NCBI GenBank assembly: GCA_963737905.1
Contig: CAVTUQ010000026.1
Location: 1-64,000, forward strand
Length of the DNA: 64,000 nt
Reading direction: 5' to 3'
DNA from: an uncultured delta proteobacterium
GTDB lineage: Bacteria > Desulfobacterota > Binatia > UBA9968
In this document: piece after piece, positions 1,151 through 6,485 of the stretch
Layout: every line of letters starts with the position of its first letter
How positions within the stretch are numbered: the stretch's first letter is position 1
Translations under genes and position numbers: made by a program
The notes under the pieces: model-generated
What the model saw: only the letters and a program-made list of their open reading frames with translations
What the model was told of the DNA's origin: nothing
Database searches by the model: none

Positions 1151-4100
1151 CTAGTTGCTAGGTTTATTACCTGTCTTTTCCACCGCTAGCCGTGTAACGT
1201 GCTTTAGATCAACTTTTCCCGATCCCAGCAGCGGAATCGAATCGATGCAGTGAATATTCTCGCGTTTCGGAATCCAGAGCTTGGGCAGATCCGACTGATT
1301 GAGTTTTTCCCACAATTCATCTGGAGCCATCCCATTCCGGCTGTAAAAAGCGATCAGTTTTTCACCTCGTTGTTCATCGGGTACAGCGGTCACCACGCTT
1401 GCCGCGTCGCCGAGGAACTTGTTGATGGCTTCCTCGATTACCATGTGGGGGATCATTTCCCCGCCGACCTTACTGAAACGCGATATCCGGTCCGTGATGG
1501 TGATGAAACCGTCTTCGTCCAGGGAACCGATATCCCCGGTAACATACCAACCGTTGCGCAGCGCCTGTTCAGTGAGCTCCGGCTGGCCGAGGTAGCCGAG
1601 CATGCGGTTGGCTCCATTGGCGATGAGCATACCCTCCTGCCCCGGCGGGAGGGTATGACCGGTGTCGGGGTCGACCGCTTTAACCGCTACACCCGGAATC
1701 GGGTGACCCACGGTGCCCGGCTTATGACCAGTCTGCGGCTCTGGCGCGTCGACTACGTCCGGTAGGTTGACGGAAACAACCGGCGCCAGCTCGGTGCAGC
1801 CGTAGCCTTGTAATAGCTCGATCCCATATTTTTCCTTGAAGGCTTTGCGAATCTGATCTCGCAGTTTCTCTGCGCCGGCGATGACGTAACGCAACGTGGC
1901 AAATTCCTCGACCGTGCATCGCCTCATGTATCCGGCGTAGAACGTCGGTGTGCTGATCAGGATAGTGGCTCGGTATTTCTGTACGGTTTCACCGATCGTC
2001 TTAGCGTCCATAGGATTGGGATGATAGATGGCTCCAAAGCCGACGATCAGCGGAAGCCACAATGAAATGCTGAAACCGAAGGAGTGAAAAAACGGAAGAA
2101 CGCCCATGACTCTGTCGCTGCGATTAAAATGGATCACCTGGCAAACGCTTTCGATGTTGGTGAGTATGTTGTGGTGCGATAGCATGACGCCCTTCGGGGT
2201 TCCGGTGCTGCCGCTGGAGAATATGACGGTCGCTAGGTCCCCGGTTTTTTGATTCTTGCCGTAGTGGTGTTCTAAGACACGGCTTGGAAGCAAAAAGGCA
2301 CTGATGAACGCGAGCAGTTTGTGAGGCGAGGTGAAACTCTTTCGGATCTCTTCCAAAAAGACCATCCCGGGTATTTCAGTAATGTTCGCCTTGGACAAGA
2401 AGAGCCGGGACGTAATGATCGTCTTGATTCCGCATTGCTGAATCGCGGTATTCATCGTTTCCGGCCCCGCTGTGAAATTCAGATTGACCGGAATTTTTCC
2501 GGCCAACACGACGGCGATATTGGTCAGCGCTCCGCCAGCAGAGGCGGGAAGTAGGATTCCAACCATTGAGTCGTTTGGCCGATGCTTTCGCACCCAGCGG
2601 GAAAGCAGCATGCTGCCGATCAAGGTTTTCCCAAAGGACAATTCGGTGCCGGTGGTGTCCGCCATGCAGAAGGAGGACCAAAGACGCTTCGCCGTCCGGA
2701 TAAACCTAGTGTGAAGCAAGCCCTGTGTGGCGCGGCGATAGTCAAACGCTTGGCTTTCGAGTTCCAACACGGCTTGGCGGACTTCCTGTACCGTCGCGGT
2801 AGACGGGAGCGGTGCTCCGAAAGAGACGGTTACGGGGTAGGGCCGCAGCTTCGGCCGTTTCCAAAAGAAGCGGCCTTCTTTGAAACTAAAGATGCTGCCC
2901 CAGAGCTGGTCCAAATGAACGGGAATGATCGGAAAGTCTGTCCCCTGGACGATCTTTTCGAAGCCACGCTTGAAAGGCAGCAGATGCCCAATGCGGCTGA
3001 TGGCGCCTTCGGCGAAAATGCAAACCACCTGGCCTTGTTGCAATTCTTTTCGAGCACTTCGCAACGCACGAACGATATCGCGCGGGTTGGTCGCTGTGAT
3101 CGGAATGGACTTCATGAGGCGGAAAAGCCAGTTGAGCCCTCGGATATCGTAGTATTCACGGTCCAGCATAAACCGAACGAACCGCGGCACGGAAGCGCCG
3201 ATAGGAAGCGCATCGACGAAGGAAACGTGATTAGAGACCAGCAGGGCTGGACCGTTGAGCGGAATATTCTCCTGCCCGACGATTCGAATGCGATATAAAG
3301 TGTGGGTGAGTATCCAGAGAATGAAGCGAACGAAGAAGTCGGGCAAAACGTATAGGGCATAAAGCGTCAAAACAAAAGTCAGGAGTCCCAGAATCAGAAT
3401 GATTTGATCCGCCTGAAAATGGAGCCAGGTGGCTAATCCCCACAGCATGGCAGAAGCTAGCAGTACGCCTATAGTGTTGAACACGTTGTTCGTCGCGATG
3501 AGCCGGCCCTTGTCCTCCCGTCCGCTACGTTGTTGCAATAGGGCATTGAGGGGAACCGCGAAAAATCCGCCTGCGAATCCTATGAGCACCAGGCAAATCG
3601 CTGCTAAATCGAAGGAAGGCTGAGAAAGAAAAAGCAACACCGAGAATGCGCCCATTCCTACGGAACCCAGCGGCACCAGCCCCAGTTCGATCTTGTCGCC
3701 CGACAAACGACCGGCCGCGAGGCTGCCGACACCGATGCCGACGGCGGCGAAAGTCCAAAGGAGTCCGATGCGAGTCTCGCCTAGTTGCAATATCTCTTTT
3801 CCAAACAGGGGAAGAACCATCTGAAGAAACGCGCCGAGAAACCAGAAGTAAGAGATTCCCATCACGGTAAGCCAGAGGGGTCGGTCCATATAGAGTCGTT
3901 TAGTGCCGTCCCAGATTTCAGCGACCGGGTTGATCACGAATTTCTTAGTCGAGCCGGAGGCGGGAACCCGGGTGATCCCCCAGCTCGTGATCGTTCCAAG
4001 TACGGCAATCGCAATCAGAACGACACCGATCCAACCTAGACGATCTTTCCAAGCTTCATAGATCGTACCGCCGAACGAAGTCCCAAGGATGATCGCCATG

Positions 4101-4555
4101 AAAGTACTCATTTCAAGCAGCCCGTTGCCGCGGGAAAGATCTTTTTCAGGGAGCATTTCGGGAAGGATCCCGTATTTTGCCGGACTGAAAAACGTCGAGT
4201 GCAAGCCCATGAGAAATACCACCGCTAACATTGGCTCCAGACGATCCGTAAAAAACGCCAGCAACCCCAGCGCCATGGCGAAGATTTCAAAAACTTTAAT
4301 TGCGATTAAAATTTTTCGCTTGCTGTGAACGTCGGCGAGGTACCCTGCATAACCCGAAAAGAGCAGGAAAGGTAAAATAAAAAGGCCCCCGATCAAGGGT
4401 ATATATTGGATTCCGCCACTTGCCGGTATGTCTAAGGCGACTAATGTGACGATGATCTTGTAGAAGTTATCGTTGAAGGCGCCGAGGAACTGTGTCCAAA
4501 AAAAACAGAAAAAGCCTCGGTCTTTCAGGATGTCGATGTATTTCCCTGTGGCCAT
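1151..4555 (-). CDS. aas: acyl-[ACP]--phospholipid O-acyltransferase: MFS (LplT-like) + PlsC acyltransferase + AMP-binding acyl-ACP synthetase fusion
   Basis: N-terminal multi-TM MFS (TQFLGAFNDN, FFSPAKYGILPE), NHVSFVD and FAEG acyltransferase motifs, FSSGSTGTPKG and GYGCTE AMP-binding motifs. Start placed at ATG 4555 (MATGKY); the ORF extends to 4663. Confidence 0.92.
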   Translation of the reverse strand: MATGKYIDILKDRGFFCFFWTQFLGAFNDNFYKIIVTLVALDIPASGGIQYIPLIGGLFILPFLLFSGYAGYLADVHSKRKILIAIKVFEIFAMALGLLAFFTDRLEPMLAVVFLMGLHSTFFSPAKYGILPEMLPEKDLSRGNGLLEMSTFMAIILGTSFGGTIYEAWKDRLGWIGVVLIAIAVLGTITSWGITRVPASGSTKKFVINPVAEIWDGTKRLYMDRPLWLTVMGISYFWFLGAFLQMVLPLFGKEILQLGETRIGLLWTFAAVGIGVGSLAAGRLSGDKIELGLVPLGSVGMGAFSVLLFLSQPSFDLAAICLVLIGFAGGFFAVPLNALLQQRSGREDKGRLIATNNVFNTIGVLLASAMLWGLATWLHFQADQIILILGLLTFVLTLYALYVLPDFFVRFILWILTHTLYRIRIVGQENIPLNGPALLVSNHVSFVDALPIGASVPRFVRFMLDREYYDIRGLNWLFRLMKSIPITATNPRDIVRALRSARKELQQGQVVCIFAEGAISRIGHLLPFKRGFEKIVQGTDFPIIPVHLDQLWGSIFSFKEGRFFWKRPKLRPYPVTVSFGAPLPSTATVQEVRQAVLELESQAFDYRRATQGLLHTRFIRTAKRLWSSFCMADTTGTELSFGKTLIGSMLLSRWVRKHRPNDSMVGILLPASAGGALTNIAVVLAGKIPVNLNFTAGPETMNTAIQQCGIKTIITSRLFLSKANITEIPGMVFLEEIRKSFTSPHKLLAFISAFLLPSRVLEHHYGKNQKTGDLATVIFSSGSTGTPKGVMLSHHNILTNIESVCQVIHFNRSDRVMGVLPFFHSFGFSISLWLPLIVGFGAIYHPNPMDAKTIGETVQKYRATILISTPTFYAGYMRRCTVEEFATLRYVIAGAEKLRDQIRKAFKEKYGIELLQGYGCTELAPVVSVNLPDVVDAPEPQTGHKPGTVGHPIPGVAVKAVDPDTGHTLPPGQEGMLIANGANRMLGYLGQPELTEQALRNGWYVTGDIGSLDEDGFITITDRISRFSKVGGEMIPHMVIEEAINKFLGDAASVVTAVPDEQRGEKLIAFYSRNGMAPDELWEKLNQSDLPKLWIPKRENIHCIDSIPLLGSGKVDLKHVTRLAVEKTGNKPSN

Positions 4556-4692
4556 AAGTATTGACGGTGTCCGGCGGCCTATTTTCGGGCGAAAGGGGAG
4601 CACAATGCAAGAGTTGTCCCGCATTTTTGCGGGCGCAGGAAAGTCTTGCCATCGAGGTTGCATAGTGTCGAGGATATCAACATAATTTAACC

Positions 4693-5463
4693 ATGGAATT
4701 CACGTGGCTCAAGGTTCCTGAGTGGGACAGATATGAAGATTTGCTGCACGGCTTCATGGGACGGCAGGGCGGCCAGAGCACGGGTCCCTACGCCGGACTC
4801 AATGTTTCCTATCGCGTCGGCGATGATGCCAAGATCGTCAGCCAAAATGTCTGCGATATGAAGCAGGCCGTGGGTATTCACGATGGGCGCATTATCACGA
4901 TGAGGCAGGTTCACGGCGACCAGATTATCGGAGTGAAGGACAAAAATACTAAAGAAGCCGGAGAGGCTGACGGCATGCTCACGCGAGAGATGGATGCCTT
5001 TCTCGGAGTCCTCACCGCCGATTGCGTGCCGATCCTTTTTGTTGCCCCCGATAAAAAGATTGTGGCGGCGGTTCATGCCGGTTGGCGCGGTACTTTGGCG
5101 GGCATCGCGGCAAAGATGGTCCGACTTTTGAACAGCCAACAAGGCATTTCGTCCGATGCGGTCGAAGCGGCCTTGGGGCCGGCAATCGGTCCGTGCTGCT
5201 ACGAGGTTAAAGAAGATGTTTCGCGTCCCCTAATCGAGGGGTGGGGACAGCTCGCCGAGCCGTGTATCGAGATTCGGCACGGCAAGACGTACTTCAATTT
5301 GCGCCGTCTCAATCGCGCAATACTAGAGCAAGCCGGCCTGCCTTCGAAGCAAATCTATGACGTTGGCCCTTGCACGAGCTGTGCGCCGGATGAGTTCTTT
5401 TCATATCGGCGCGAAAAAAAAGAAACCGGCCGCCAGATTAGCTTTATCGGTTGGGCGTCCTAA
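4693..5463 (+). CDS. pgeF: peptidoglycan editing factor / purine nucleoside phosphorylase YfiH family
   Basis: QVHG, TADCVPIL, HAGWRG, GPAIGPCCYEV, CT and FFSYRR motifs. Confidence 0.93.
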   Translation: MEFTWLKVPEWDRYEDLLHGFMGRQGGQSTGPYAGLNVSYRVGDDAKIVSQNVCDMKQAVGIHDGRIITMRQVHGDQIIGVKDKNTKEAGEADGMLTREMDAFLGVLTADCVPILFVAPDKKIVAAVHAGWRGTLAGIAAKMVRLLNSQQGISSDAVEAALGPAIGPCCYEVKEDVSRPLIEGWGQLAEPCIEIRHGKTYFNLRRLNRAILEQAGLPSKQIYDVGPCTSCAPDEFFSYRREKKETGRQISFIGWAS

Positions 5464-5527
5464 AGATCGACGTTGCTGCGGTTTTGCTTGCCGTTATTTA
5501 TCGATACTAAAAAAATCGATTTTCTAA

Positions 5528-5556
5528 TTGACAGTTAAGGACCATTTTCCTAAACT
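5528..5556 (+). promoter_or_regulatory. sigma70-type promoter driving the sORF/sRNA unit
   Basis: TTGACA (5528-5533), exact 17-bp spacer, TAAACT (5551-5556). Confidence 0.75.
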
Positions 5557-5588
5557 ACGATTCAGCAGGGAAAGGAGGTGGTCCAGAC

Positions 5589-5633
5589 ATGAATGATGAT
5601 AATTGTACTGTCTGCGAGGTGGCTGAGACTTAG
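5589..5633 (+). CDS. 14-aa sORF MNDDNCTVCEVAET (CxxC), or the coding part of a dual-function sRNA
   Basis: ATG..TAG preceded by an extended SD (GAAAGGAGGTGGTCCAG, 5570-5586), lying between a consensus promoter and a terminator. Confidence 0.55.
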   Translation: MNDDNCTVCEVAET

Positions 5634-5700
5634 GCTCTAGGCGGGATCTTTGACGGGGGTTCAGGCCTGGAGCCTGGGAATCCCCCTCAGTCCACCTAGG

Positions 5701-5751
5701 GGTCCGCTCCAACGGTCGCGTTAGCTACCGGATGGAGCGGACCTTTTTTTT
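5701..5751 (+). terminator. Rho-independent terminator
   Basis: GGTCCGCTCCA...TGGAGCGGACC perfect 11-bp stem followed by a T8 run; overlaps the 3' end of the convergent HEAT gene. Confidence 0.8.
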
Positions 5752-6446
5752 AGGATGTCAAAGGCGGTGAGTGCGGCTTTTTTTAGTTGCACATTGTCGC
5801 TCGCGCTCGCTTTCTCCAGTTCACTTAGAAACTTTTCCGACGGAGATCCCAGCTGCGCTAGAATAACTGCTGCGCTGTTGCGAACTCTAAGATCCTCGTC
5901 CTTTAAGAATAGTAACAATAATTCGTTCTTCCCATTCTCACTAAGGCCAGGCTGCATTTTTAGACTCGTGGCGGCGGCTACCCTAACCGTTGGATCAGGG
6001 TCGCGCAGGGAATTCAAAAGCGCCTGTACGCTCTCTTCATCCGTCAGTCCCACGTCGCGTAGAGAATAAATCGCCATCCTTCTCTGGTTGGCTGTTCCTT
6101 TTGAAGCGAGCTGGATGAGTAGTTTTGAGACTTGTCTGTCCGTGTGTGCCAAGCGAATAAGGATCAGAGCGACGGCCCAACGAATATCCGGATCCCGATG
6201 GTCGAGTGTTTCTATTAAAACCTGAATGCTGGATTGAGGGGGTGAGGGGAGGCTAGCCAATATGTAGGCGATAGGCCAACGATTCTTACGGGTCGGGTCG
6301 TTCAGCAAGTCAATGAGAGTTGTTGTTATTTGAGCATCATCGGCTGCCATGCCTATGAGCGCATCGACCAGTTTCCGCAATGTGGGCTTGTCCGACGTCT
6401 CTAGGTCGGCGATCAGGGTAGCGATCTTGTTATCGCCACGATCCAT
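5721..6446 (-). CDS. HEAT repeat (PBS lyase-like) protein
   Basis: repeated LxDxDPxVRxxAAxxL units (LDHRDPDIRWAVALIL, LRDPDPTVRVAAATSL, LKDEDLRVRNSAAVIL); alternative start at 6458. Confidence 0.85.
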   Translation of the reverse strand: MDRGDNKIATLIADLETSDKPTLRKLVDALIGMAADDAQITTTLIDLLNDPTRKNRWPIAYILASLPSPPQSSIQVLIETLDHRDPDIRWAVALILIRLAHTDRQVSKLLIQLASKGTANQRRMAIYSLRDVGLTDEESVQALLNSLRDPDPTVRVAAATSLKMQPGLSENGKNELLLLFLKDEDLRVRNSAAVILAQLGSPSEKFLSELEKASASDNVQLKKAALTAFDILKKRSAPSGS

Positions 6447-6485
6447 GAGGTTGCGCAATAGCTAGCCGAGCGGTTGAGGGGAAGA

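Follow-up and report, generated by a model that had tools for sequence, protein, structure and literature searches.

A conserved small transcription unit of the Ms_IGR-5 and rre kind, with an extended Shine-Dalgarno sequence, in an uncultured member of the Binatia

The first 64,000 nucleotides (nt) of contig CAVTUQ010000026.1 (forward strand; hereafter the window), from the genome of an uncultured delta proteobacterium (GCA_963737905.1; Binatia, UBA9968), include at 5528-5751 a compact transcription unit that combines a promoter, an extended Shine-Dalgarno (SD) sequence, a small open reading frame (sORF), a structured domain and a terminator. We conclude that this is a real, conserved element, and that it belongs to a kind of element that has already been described. 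Its product is probably a stand-alone RNA of about 189 nt, transcribed from a sigma-70-type promoter and of the same kind as Ms_IGR-5 and the rre RNAs, which would dock on the 30S ribosomal subunit and have its fold opened by translation. Gene callers and Rfam thresholds both miss the element though nearly every genome of the order keeps it, and look-alikes are present in at least nine phylum-level groups. As far as our literature searches show, the breadth of the family, the view of Ms_IGR-5 as an rre-like small mRNA and a clamp structure built from the frame itself are new. The analysis joins an Rfam family named 'Actinobacteria sRNA' (small RNA) to extended-SD small mRNAs that have so far been described only in alpha-proteobacteria, supplies a covariation-backed fold of which the micro-ORF is a part, and argues that the passage of the ribosome, not the peptide, is what matters. 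Binatia are uncultured, but family members are also carried by culturable hosts such as Mycolicibacterium smegmatis and Streptomyces coelicolor.

The 16S ribosomal RNA gene of the same assembly (G000:C5:168563-170120) terminates in GGCTGGATCACCTCCTTTCT. An initial annotation, made from the letters of the window, had described a 17-nt complement of the usual bacterial 16S 3' end with one G.U wobble, and comparison with the genome's own 16S gene confirmed it: the 17 nt form 16 Watson-Crick pairs and one G.U. The 13-mer AAGGAGGTGRTCC occurs twice in the 6.7-Mb assembly, in the 5570-5586 region and antisense to the 16S gene. The duplex predicted between the 5' SD and the 16S tail has an energy of -33.7 kcal/mol, against -8.7 for GGAGG alone and -12.8 for an internal GAGGUGG. 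The latter heptamer is present twice in the RNA, within the SD and as Glu-Val codons of the frame; the internal copy is invariant in 26/26 sequences from the order and stands in upper case in the consensus of Rfam family RF02471. Further downstream, CCACC (5692-5696) resembles the 16S anti-SD. With the stop codon in the ribosomal A site, the internal GAGG would be found 8 nt behind the P-site codon, at a normal SD spacing.

Conservation was examined in 41 genomes (this one, G000, and 40 relatives from three families of one order) with 5520-5760 as the BLASTN query. The element was found in 40 of them, mostly as one copy each; only G016 (same family, 99% complete, 8.3 Mb) returned no BLAST match. 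The unpublished genomes G012 and G006 were left out of alignments, and no conclusion given here rests on them. What the most distant relatives conserve is a core at 5563-5638, made up of the SD and sORF. Shuffled sequences contain a mean of 0.9 promoter-like sites, so that one such site is about what chance provides; a -35/-10 pair with 17-18 nt spacing is, however, found 16-18 nt before GGAGG in 26/26 relatives, with a variable spacer sequence. The terminator stem (5701-5710 with 5734-5743, plus G5700.U5744, then T8 at 5744-5751) covaries across phyla, with changes on both sides at 10/10 pairs in a 96-sequence alignment. All five features named by the initial annotation (near-consensus promoter, 16S complement, 14-amino-acid (aa) CxxC-bearing frame, long hairpin and terminator with T8) lie where it had placed them within 5528-5751. 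Its description of a self-contained unit of about 190 nt that is not an attenuator leader also stands, given the conserved promoter and terminator and an orientation that flips in one genus (see below).

An RNA of this design is known from Bradyrhizobium: rreB, 165 nt long, combines a frame of 14 codons with a stretch of 17 nt that is complementary to the 16S 3' end (PMC5711450). It co-sediments with 30S subunits, for which the 5' extension of the SD is required, and is weakly translated owing to its long SD and GTG start; putting a stop codon in place of the start codon lengthened its half-life from 10 to 37 min (about 3.7-fold), and 20-fold overexpression produced no growth phenotype (PMC5711450). 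Like rreB and rreR, the window RNA is a short stand-alone transcript, of about 189 nt as compared with 165 nt, and has a promoter of RpoD type as well as a terminator; it has complementarity to its own 16S 3' end (16-17 nt in these RNAs) with a 14-18-codon sORF directly behind; its SD/start region can pair partly within the RNA; and its genomic context is conserved only within a family. It differs in that the last base of the rre complement is the G of a GTG start codon, whereas here the ATG follows 2 nt after the complement, and in that the complement contains one G.U. The GTG overlap, lacking here, is seen in copies from sister orders (L155-L157; GATCCAGTG). Three other rre hallmarks are present: complementarity to the own 16S of at least 16 nt (17 nt here), a conserved sORF of about 14-18 codons behind the SD, and an autonomous short transcript with a predicted and conserved promoter and terminator. 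The window RNA is of the same kind as the rre small mRNAs, and common descent is plausible. The 30S docking that the initial annotation had suggested would fit the property shown experimentally for the analogous rreB, while its alternative, very efficient production of the peptide, runs against the finding that the extended SD depresses translation in rreB (PMC5711450). Genes of the rre kind are reported only from four orders of alpha-proteobacteria, with a context not conserved beyond one family (PMC5711450). Our literature searches found no paper on rre genes later than 2016, and no match to words of the sORF peptide.

The frame was analysed in 143 unique sequences, 27 collected by BLAST from the order and 116 by pattern, with the unpublished genomes excluded. 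In 143/143 an in-frame start codon lies 4-16 nt after GGAGG and the frame is open to the Cys codon; the other two frames are open in 2/143 and 58/143. A stop codon follows exactly 18 nt after the Cys codon, and exactly three codons after GAGGUG, in all 143 and never at shifted positions (TAG in 127, TGA in 10, TAA in 6). All 27 sequences from the order keep the frame, which is the one that the initial annotation had drawn from the ATG at 5589. One alternative is that the RNA is a non-coding sponge or decoy, which titrates 30S subunits or maturing 16S 3' ends and whose frame is incidental. A 17-nt complement that spans the whole 16S tail would suit this role, as would the SD-extension-dependent co-sedimentation of rreB with 30S (PMC5711450). 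An incidental frame would not, however, persist in 143/143 sequences with three interchangeable stops at one position, the start codon influences the stability of rreB, and, as argued for rreB, ribosomes vastly outnumber the RNA, 20-fold more of which did not slow growth (PMC5711450). We consider a sponge quite unlikely.

A second alternative makes the micro-peptide, a CxxC metal- or redox-binding 14-mer, the product that matters, with the RNA features controlling its amount. Frame, start and stop are strictly kept, as this would require; the consensus of the order, M-I-D-K-C-x-D-C-E-V-A-E-T, stays fairly constant while some codons change synonymously (ATT/ATA, GAT/GAC); and RreB and RreR are each reported to be conserved as peptides in their own clade (PMC5711450). 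Yet the first Cys of the CxxC is absent in some members of the order (MITKSSDCEVAET, MIEKTSDCEVAET), and the second is Gly or Ser in near relatives, from a metagenome set, of the Methylomirabilis-type and Terriglobales-type copies, which does not support the metal/redox peptide of the initial annotation. Length ranges from 11 to 19 aa among the 143 sequences, which start with ATG (65), TTG (57) or GTG (21), and the N-terminal halves of the peptide are unrelated between phyla. Where residues vary, the nucleotides are kept: Thr is preceded by W, R or G with GGAC unchanged (NGG-ACN), Glu is preceded by C, G or S with GU-GAGGUG maintained (NGU-GAG-GUG), and the three C-terminal residues change in step with the 3' strand of P1, a helix described below. 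Because these residue changes preserve nucleotides, a metal-binding CxxC peptide seems unlikely; from the sequences, the constraint appears to act at the RNA level rather than the peptide level, and the peptide looks secondary. Synthetic RreB and RreR also lacked structure, and growth was unaffected when RreB was putatively overproduced from a construct with a truncated 5' untranslated region (UTR) that supports translation (PMC5711450). Taken as a whole, the peptide alternative is unlikely.

The fold was examined in two alignments. A1 contains 26 sequences from the order, and the structure tested was drawn from the window; 87.7% of cells are paired, compared with 36.6-50.5% when the partners are slid, and 14 pairs have changes on both sides against 6.2 +/- 1.6 in shuffles, a number reached by 0/500. 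Of 100 pattern loci tried (L035-L134), 96 were matched by R1, a covariance model built from the nested part of the structure, and A2 is the corresponding alignment of 96 sequences from many phyla. Two helices close the molecule (Table 1). P0 joins the leader to the second Cys codon, and its outer pair, between a leader base and the third base of that codon, is A-U in 62, G-C in 18 and G-U in 7 sequences of A2. P1 joins the Glu-Val codons to the segment before the terminator, with CCACC (5692-5696) pairing with GGUGG inside the sORF; its five inner pairs all have both-side changes across phyla, and 93.8% of their cells are paired. The 3' half of the sORF itself thus supplies a strand to both molecule-closing helices (the 5' strand in P1), and the stop codon lies at the junction of P1 and P2. 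The contiguous P1 helix formed with a sequence's own downstream region averages 8.6 base pairs (bp) against 7.6 bp with those of other sequences, the strand being widely shared and the region G+C-rich, and column-wise pair counts were used in place of this comparison, which did not discriminate.

Within the closed domain, P2 and P3 cross each other and form either a pseudoknot or alternative folds. Simultaneous formation of both in full, as a classical H-type pseudoknot, is doubted on steric grounds because only 3 nt between their 3' strands would have to cross a 10-bp helix. The initial annotation had drawn a single hairpin at about 5637-5699. Its inner part, GGGGGUUC with GAAUCCCC, has compensatory changes and is retained as P3, but the outer stem, CTAGGCGG with CCACCTAG, was rejected: relatives support P1 and P2 in its stead, and CUAGGC belongs to P2.

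The minimum free energy of the RNA is -93.1 kcal/mol (z = -5.4 against shuffles). In this unconstrained fold CCACCU, the 3' strand of P1, pairs with the 5' SD. The covariation-supported fold (P0, P1, P2 and terminator enforced) reaches -90.2 kcal/mol, about 3 above the minimum, and leaves the SD in a large loop. As the two folds differ by only about 3 kcal/mol, a switch between them is possible. Two near-isoenergetic folds would also be expected of a trans-acting base-pairing or dual-function RNA whose seed (for example the P1 3' strand or a P2/P3 loop) is gated by translation; the stand-alone unit with its strong terminator hairpin and the conserved 3' motif AAUYCC..CAG..CACC would be in keeping with this, and RNAs with two functions that derive from attenuators, among them rnTrpL/peTrpL, are known. 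Most of the conserved single-stranded sequence is, however, the SD itself (no target search was made), and the family is kept across phyla of very different gene content, which leaves a trans-acting role very unlikely.

An Rfam scan of the whole window at gathering thresholds returned no match, and a scan for tRNA and transfer-messenger RNA found none. At relaxed thresholds RF02471 (Ms_IGR-5, 'Actinobacteria sRNA') and RF01867 (CC2171) both align end to end over 5562-5752, and both start GAAAGGAGGUGRUCC. RF02471 scores 26.2 bits against a cut-off of 45 (E 3.7e-4 in a 451-nt search, 1.3e-3 in the whole genome); positions 1-184 of its 184 align to 5564-5752, and the conserved blocks GGAAGGAGGUGGUCC, UGYGAGGUGGCUG, AAUYCCCC..CAGUC.ACC and the terminator follow in the same order. 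The statement of the initial annotation that no described family could be recognized gives way to this full-length match below threshold and to the rreB/rreR kind. When 20 family loci were searched with RF02471, 16 matched at E<=0.01, of which 11 were above the cut-off and five at 27-40 bits (three of these from Binatia), and four gave none. The scores are graded, from 61.8-175.8 bits in actinobacteria through Methylomirabilis (67.7), Dehalococcoidia (59.9) and Ignavibacteriales (47.5) to Binatia (27.3-40.3), and the non-actinobacterial loci above the cut-off include L056 (67.7), L135 (59.9) and L143 (47.5).

Ms_IGR-5 and the window RNA share the leader, GGAGGUGRUCC, an 11-14-codon frame that ends C-E-V-x-x-x-stop, inner hairpins, AAUYCC..CAG..CACC and a terminator. 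The consensus frame of Ms_IGR-5 ends TCEVAAR-stop and the frame of the window RNA CEVAET-stop. They differ in the inner domain, which in the window RNA consists of the two crossing helices P2 and P3, and in that the structure printed by Rfam has neither P0 nor P1. Ms_IGR-5, found in M. smegmatis, and CC2171 are both catalogued as sRNAs without a function; Rfam types Ms_IGR-5 as an sRNA gene and names it for Actinobacteria, and neither that name and type nor the papers found to mention it speak of an mRNA or a long SD. In both M. abscessus and M. smegmatis, ribosome-protected reads on its homologues are reported as significant (PMC4974804). Judged by its alignment to the model, the window RNA is a divergent, non-actinobacterial member of the Ms_IGR-5 family that lies beyond the Rfam cut-off.

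CC2171, a Caulobacter sRNA whose expression in Methylorubrum was confirmed by Northern blot (bioRxiv 10.1101/2022.01.24.477521), resembles the window RNA in its 5' GAAAGGAGGUGAUCCAG, in a long-range helix from early sORF codons to the segment before the terminator, and in the terminator. Its frame, on the other hand, is longer (mostly 20-25 aa, MSHC...), its closing helix is built from other codons (CAUUGUC/GACAAUG), and its SD extension has a pairing partner in CUGGAUC, an internal copy of the 16S end. Four MSHC-type metagenome loci (L163, L174, L207 and L216) have, as their W-I-L codons, CUGGAUCCUC, a near copy of the 16S 3' end; as it can pair with the SD extension, MSHC-type RNAs combine an SD with a sequence that resembles the anti-SD. 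The only other RF01867 match in the genome is antisense to the 16S 3' end, so that the SD block alone drives weak matches, and RF01867 and RF02471 matches in control genomes are unusable as evidence of distribution.

Beyond the order, an exact pattern search of 400 other genomes of the phylum returned four matches, one in the same family, three among 12 genomes of other orders of the class and 0/387 elsewhere, where 0/387 means not found rather than absent, since the exact pattern misses variants. R1 found nothing in 150 other genomes of the phylum (0/150), a search in which 17 candidates per genome were scored with a model that gives members from outside the order just 13-40 bits. A scan of species-representative genomes for AAGGAGGTGRTCC followed after 10-40 nt by TGYGAGGTG gave at least 120 matches. 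Those listed include Actinomycetota (Mycobacterium, Mycolicibacterium, Streptomyces, Kitasatospora, Brachybacterium, Gordonia, Saccharopolyspora and others), metagenome-assembled genomes (MAGs) of Binatia or 'Deltaproteobacteria', Thermodesulfobacteriota, Acidobacteriota, Methylomirabilota/Rokubacteria, Nitrospiria, Dehalococcoidia, Ignavibacteriales and Entotheonella.

A metagenome set free of the Cys-Glu-Val pattern comprised 120 GTG-overlap loci with GAAAGGAGGTGATCCAGTG. Their commonest frames are of 14 aa (MSYTKRCHLAGIAR-like), 18 aa (MSRVILER...-like) and 20-25 aa (MSHC...). The 14-aa and 18-aa frames are unrelated to CEVAET and, from their lengths, would be RreB and RreR. E-V-x-x-x-stop was found in 19/120, with Glu always encoded by GAG and Val by GTG in 11, GTC in 7 and GTT in 1. 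The MSHC type follows the same plan, with an extended SD, frame codons that pair with the segment before the terminator, and a terminator, in other sequences. A second subtype, found in the same class (L155-L157) and in Methylomirabilota-like records (L086, L096, L146 and L154), has an SD (GGTGATCCAG) that runs into the GTG start and a frame that terminates TVICEVV(A/P)(S/P)-stop; TVICEVV-type copies also occur among the 120 loci. In a record titled as an uncultured Gammaproteobacteria MAG (L094), the copy (LVDLWTCEVAAS) is of mycobacterial type, which suggests that the contig was mis-binned and that the copy is not gammaproteobacterial. In Saccharopolyspora rosea (L077) the structured domain after the stop codon is replaced by unrelated, coding-start-like sequence, which may reflect an insertion into the sRNA gene.

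Sampled words of 5300-6000 were present at 0.20-0.24 in six RNA-library runs of five studies, and four runs (X15, X16, X18 and X20) were aligned, the two others being X17 and X19 (0.20). A 178-nt metatranscriptome contig (X15) corresponds to 5573-5750 and a 151-nt contig from a different study (X16) to 5586-5736, both identical to the window and both inside the unit; a third (X20) covers 5597-5751 and continues into the downstream sequence of a relative. No contig in the four aligned runs covers 5338-5545 or 5808-6000, though an uncovered part is no proof.

On the reading that we favour, the RNA would begin folded, clamped by P0 (leader to Cys codon) and P1 (Glu-Val-Ala-Glu codons to the CACC segment), as covariation indicates. 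The SD, left in the large loop, could then pair over up to 17-18 bp with all of the single-stranded 16S tail and so dock the RNA on the 30S subunit, a step for which the complementarity is evident and the binding is taken by analogy from rreB. The micro-ORF would be truly read, as the conservation of start, frame and stop and the footprints reported in M. abscessus and M. smegmatis suggest. A translating ribosome would have to melt P0 and P1 and would probably halt with the internal GAGGUG about 8 nt behind the P site; translation would turn the closed RNA into an open one and, as in rreB, probably set its lifetime. The peptide would most likely be a by-product, given amino-acid changes that preserve nucleotides. 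As a cellular read-out, the RNA might gauge free 30S subunits or translation capacity, or it might release a trans-acting segment. A wider proposal, which we offer tentatively and with much less confidence, is that Ms_IGR-5, CC2171, rreB/rreR and the Binatia RNA form one ancient class of ribosome-docking RNA switches in many phyla, in which a 17-nt SD captures the whole 16S tail, reading of a functionless micro-ORF melts two clamps (one of them GAGGUG-CCACC), and the open or closed state reports free 30S subunits or translation capacity.

Several points weigh against the reading that we favour. 30S binding, weak translation and translation-dependent decay would be carried over from rreB, a possible homologue; predominant 30S association, weak translation and start-codon-dependent decay are known only for the B. 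japonicum RNA (PMC5711450). Given the overexpression result, even the known members are without a demonstrated function. The 116 pattern-derived sequences were gathered with a pattern that demands TGYGAGGTG, which makes the invariance of Cys-Glu-Val among them circular; the 27 BLAST-collected sequences, the Rfam consensus and the 120-locus metagenome set are free of this bias. A2, with 87.9% of cells paired against 37.8-44.3% with the partners slid, was fitted to the model structure and is biased towards it. The window copy falls below the cut-off of RF02471, and RF01867 reaches 21.3 bits where 75 are required and has no match at E<=0.01 on the 20 family loci. The fairly well kept N-terminal I-D-K-C within the order leaves a lineage-specific role for the peptide possible. 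The metatranscriptome contigs show presence in RNA libraries rather than transcript ends or strand, with DNA carry-over possible, and one contig, X18, a relative's copy with 17 differences, extends upstream over that relative's promoter region.

Attenuator leaders of the trpL type, including rnTrpL/peTrpL, resemble the window RNA in their very short frame, in translation that remodels downstream pairing ahead of an intrinsic terminator, and in that ribosome passage counts more than peptide sequence. They differ from it in that the window unit is autonomous, can be inverted in place, and lacks both a regulated downstream gene and a run of regulatory codons. The STAB-SDs of Bacillus mRNAs, where a strong SD-like sequence near the 5' end holds a 30S subunit, start no frame and sit on long mRNAs, whereas the window SD precedes a start codon and a conserved frame.

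Table 1. Coordinates of the unit, its predicted helices and the neighbouring genes in the window
Feature	Position	Strand	Details
Sigma-70-type promoter	TTGACA 5528-5533; TAAACT 5551-5556	+	17-nt spacer; 10/12 consensus matches
Predicted transcription start (inferred)	~5563-5565	+	CAGCAG
Predicted whole transcript	5563-5751	+	~189 nt; small mRNA/sRNA of Ms_IGR-5 / rre kind
P0, 5' strand	5565-5568	+	GCAG; partner CUGC 5612-5615 contains the second Cys codon; pairing 100% among 26 Binatia sequences
Extended SD	5570-5586	+	GAAAGGAGGTGGTCCAG; 17-nt complement of own 16S 3' tail; G.U at G5581
sORF	5589-5633	+	MNDDNCTVCEVAET; ATG at 5589; 14 codons and stop TAG (5631-5633)
P0, 3' strand	5612-5615	+	CUGC; covariation
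Internal SD-like sequence	5616-5622	+	GAGGUGG (Glu-Val codons); ends 9 nt before stop codon
P1, 5' strand	5617-5627	+	AGGUGGCUGAG; within sORF; covariation
P2	5633-5674	+	GGCUCUAGGC (5633-5642) with GCCUGGAGCC (5665-5674); starts at last stop-codon base; 4/10 pairs with both-side changes, 93.3% paired
P3	5655-5685	+	GGGGGUUC (5655-5662) with GAAUCCCC (5678-5685); crosses P2; 3/8 pairs with both-side changes, 89.4% paired
P1, 3' strand	5686-5697	+	CUCAG-U-CCACCU; U5691 bulged; directly 5' of terminator; covariation
Intrinsic terminator	5700-5751	+	10-11 bp G+C-rich stem with inner stem, then T8
Cu-oxidase_4 (PgeF/YfiH-type) gene	4693-5463	+	upstream
HEAT-repeat gene	5721-6458	-	convergent, next downstream

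The neighbouring genes bear on a last alternative, that the element acts in cis, whether as a leader or attenuator, as a product of the 3' UTR of the upstream pgeF-like gene, or by antisense regulation of the HEAT-repeat gene. The HEAT-repeat gene flanks the element in 26/29 loci of the order and the pgeF-like gene in 18/29 (24/27 and 16/27 without the unpublished genomes), in loci that span only about 1.5 kb on each side and several of which end at contig ends. The last 10 codons and the stop codon of the HEAT-repeat gene are antisense to the terminator hairpin and T-run (5721-5751), a 31-nt overlap, so transcripts of both must overlap by at least 31 nt. Against this, the unit has its own conserved promoter, and no + strand gene follows it, the next gene being the convergent HEAT-repeat gene. 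Between the same pgeF-like and HEAT-repeat genes the element is inverted in L030 and L031, while L029, from the same genus, has it in the orientation seen here; a unit that flips between the same neighbours is neither a leader nor a 3' UTR, nor does it keep the regulated same-strand downstream gene of an attenuator. Neither neighbour lies within 1.5 kb of the copies in other orders of the class (L155-L157), and the context of rre genes is reported not to be conserved beyond one family (PMC5711450). The cis alternative is thus largely refuted by the flip, and we give it hardly any credence.

Comparison of L029 with L030 and L031 points to a local inversion of a unit of about 160 nt together with its promoter and terminator. 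Elsewhere in the window, 1151-4663 (- strand) contains a single 1170-aa frame that joins MFS_1, Acyltransferase and AMP-binding domains, which we take to resemble a fused lysophospholipid transporter and acyltransferase/acyl-ACP-synthetase of the LplT-Aas type.

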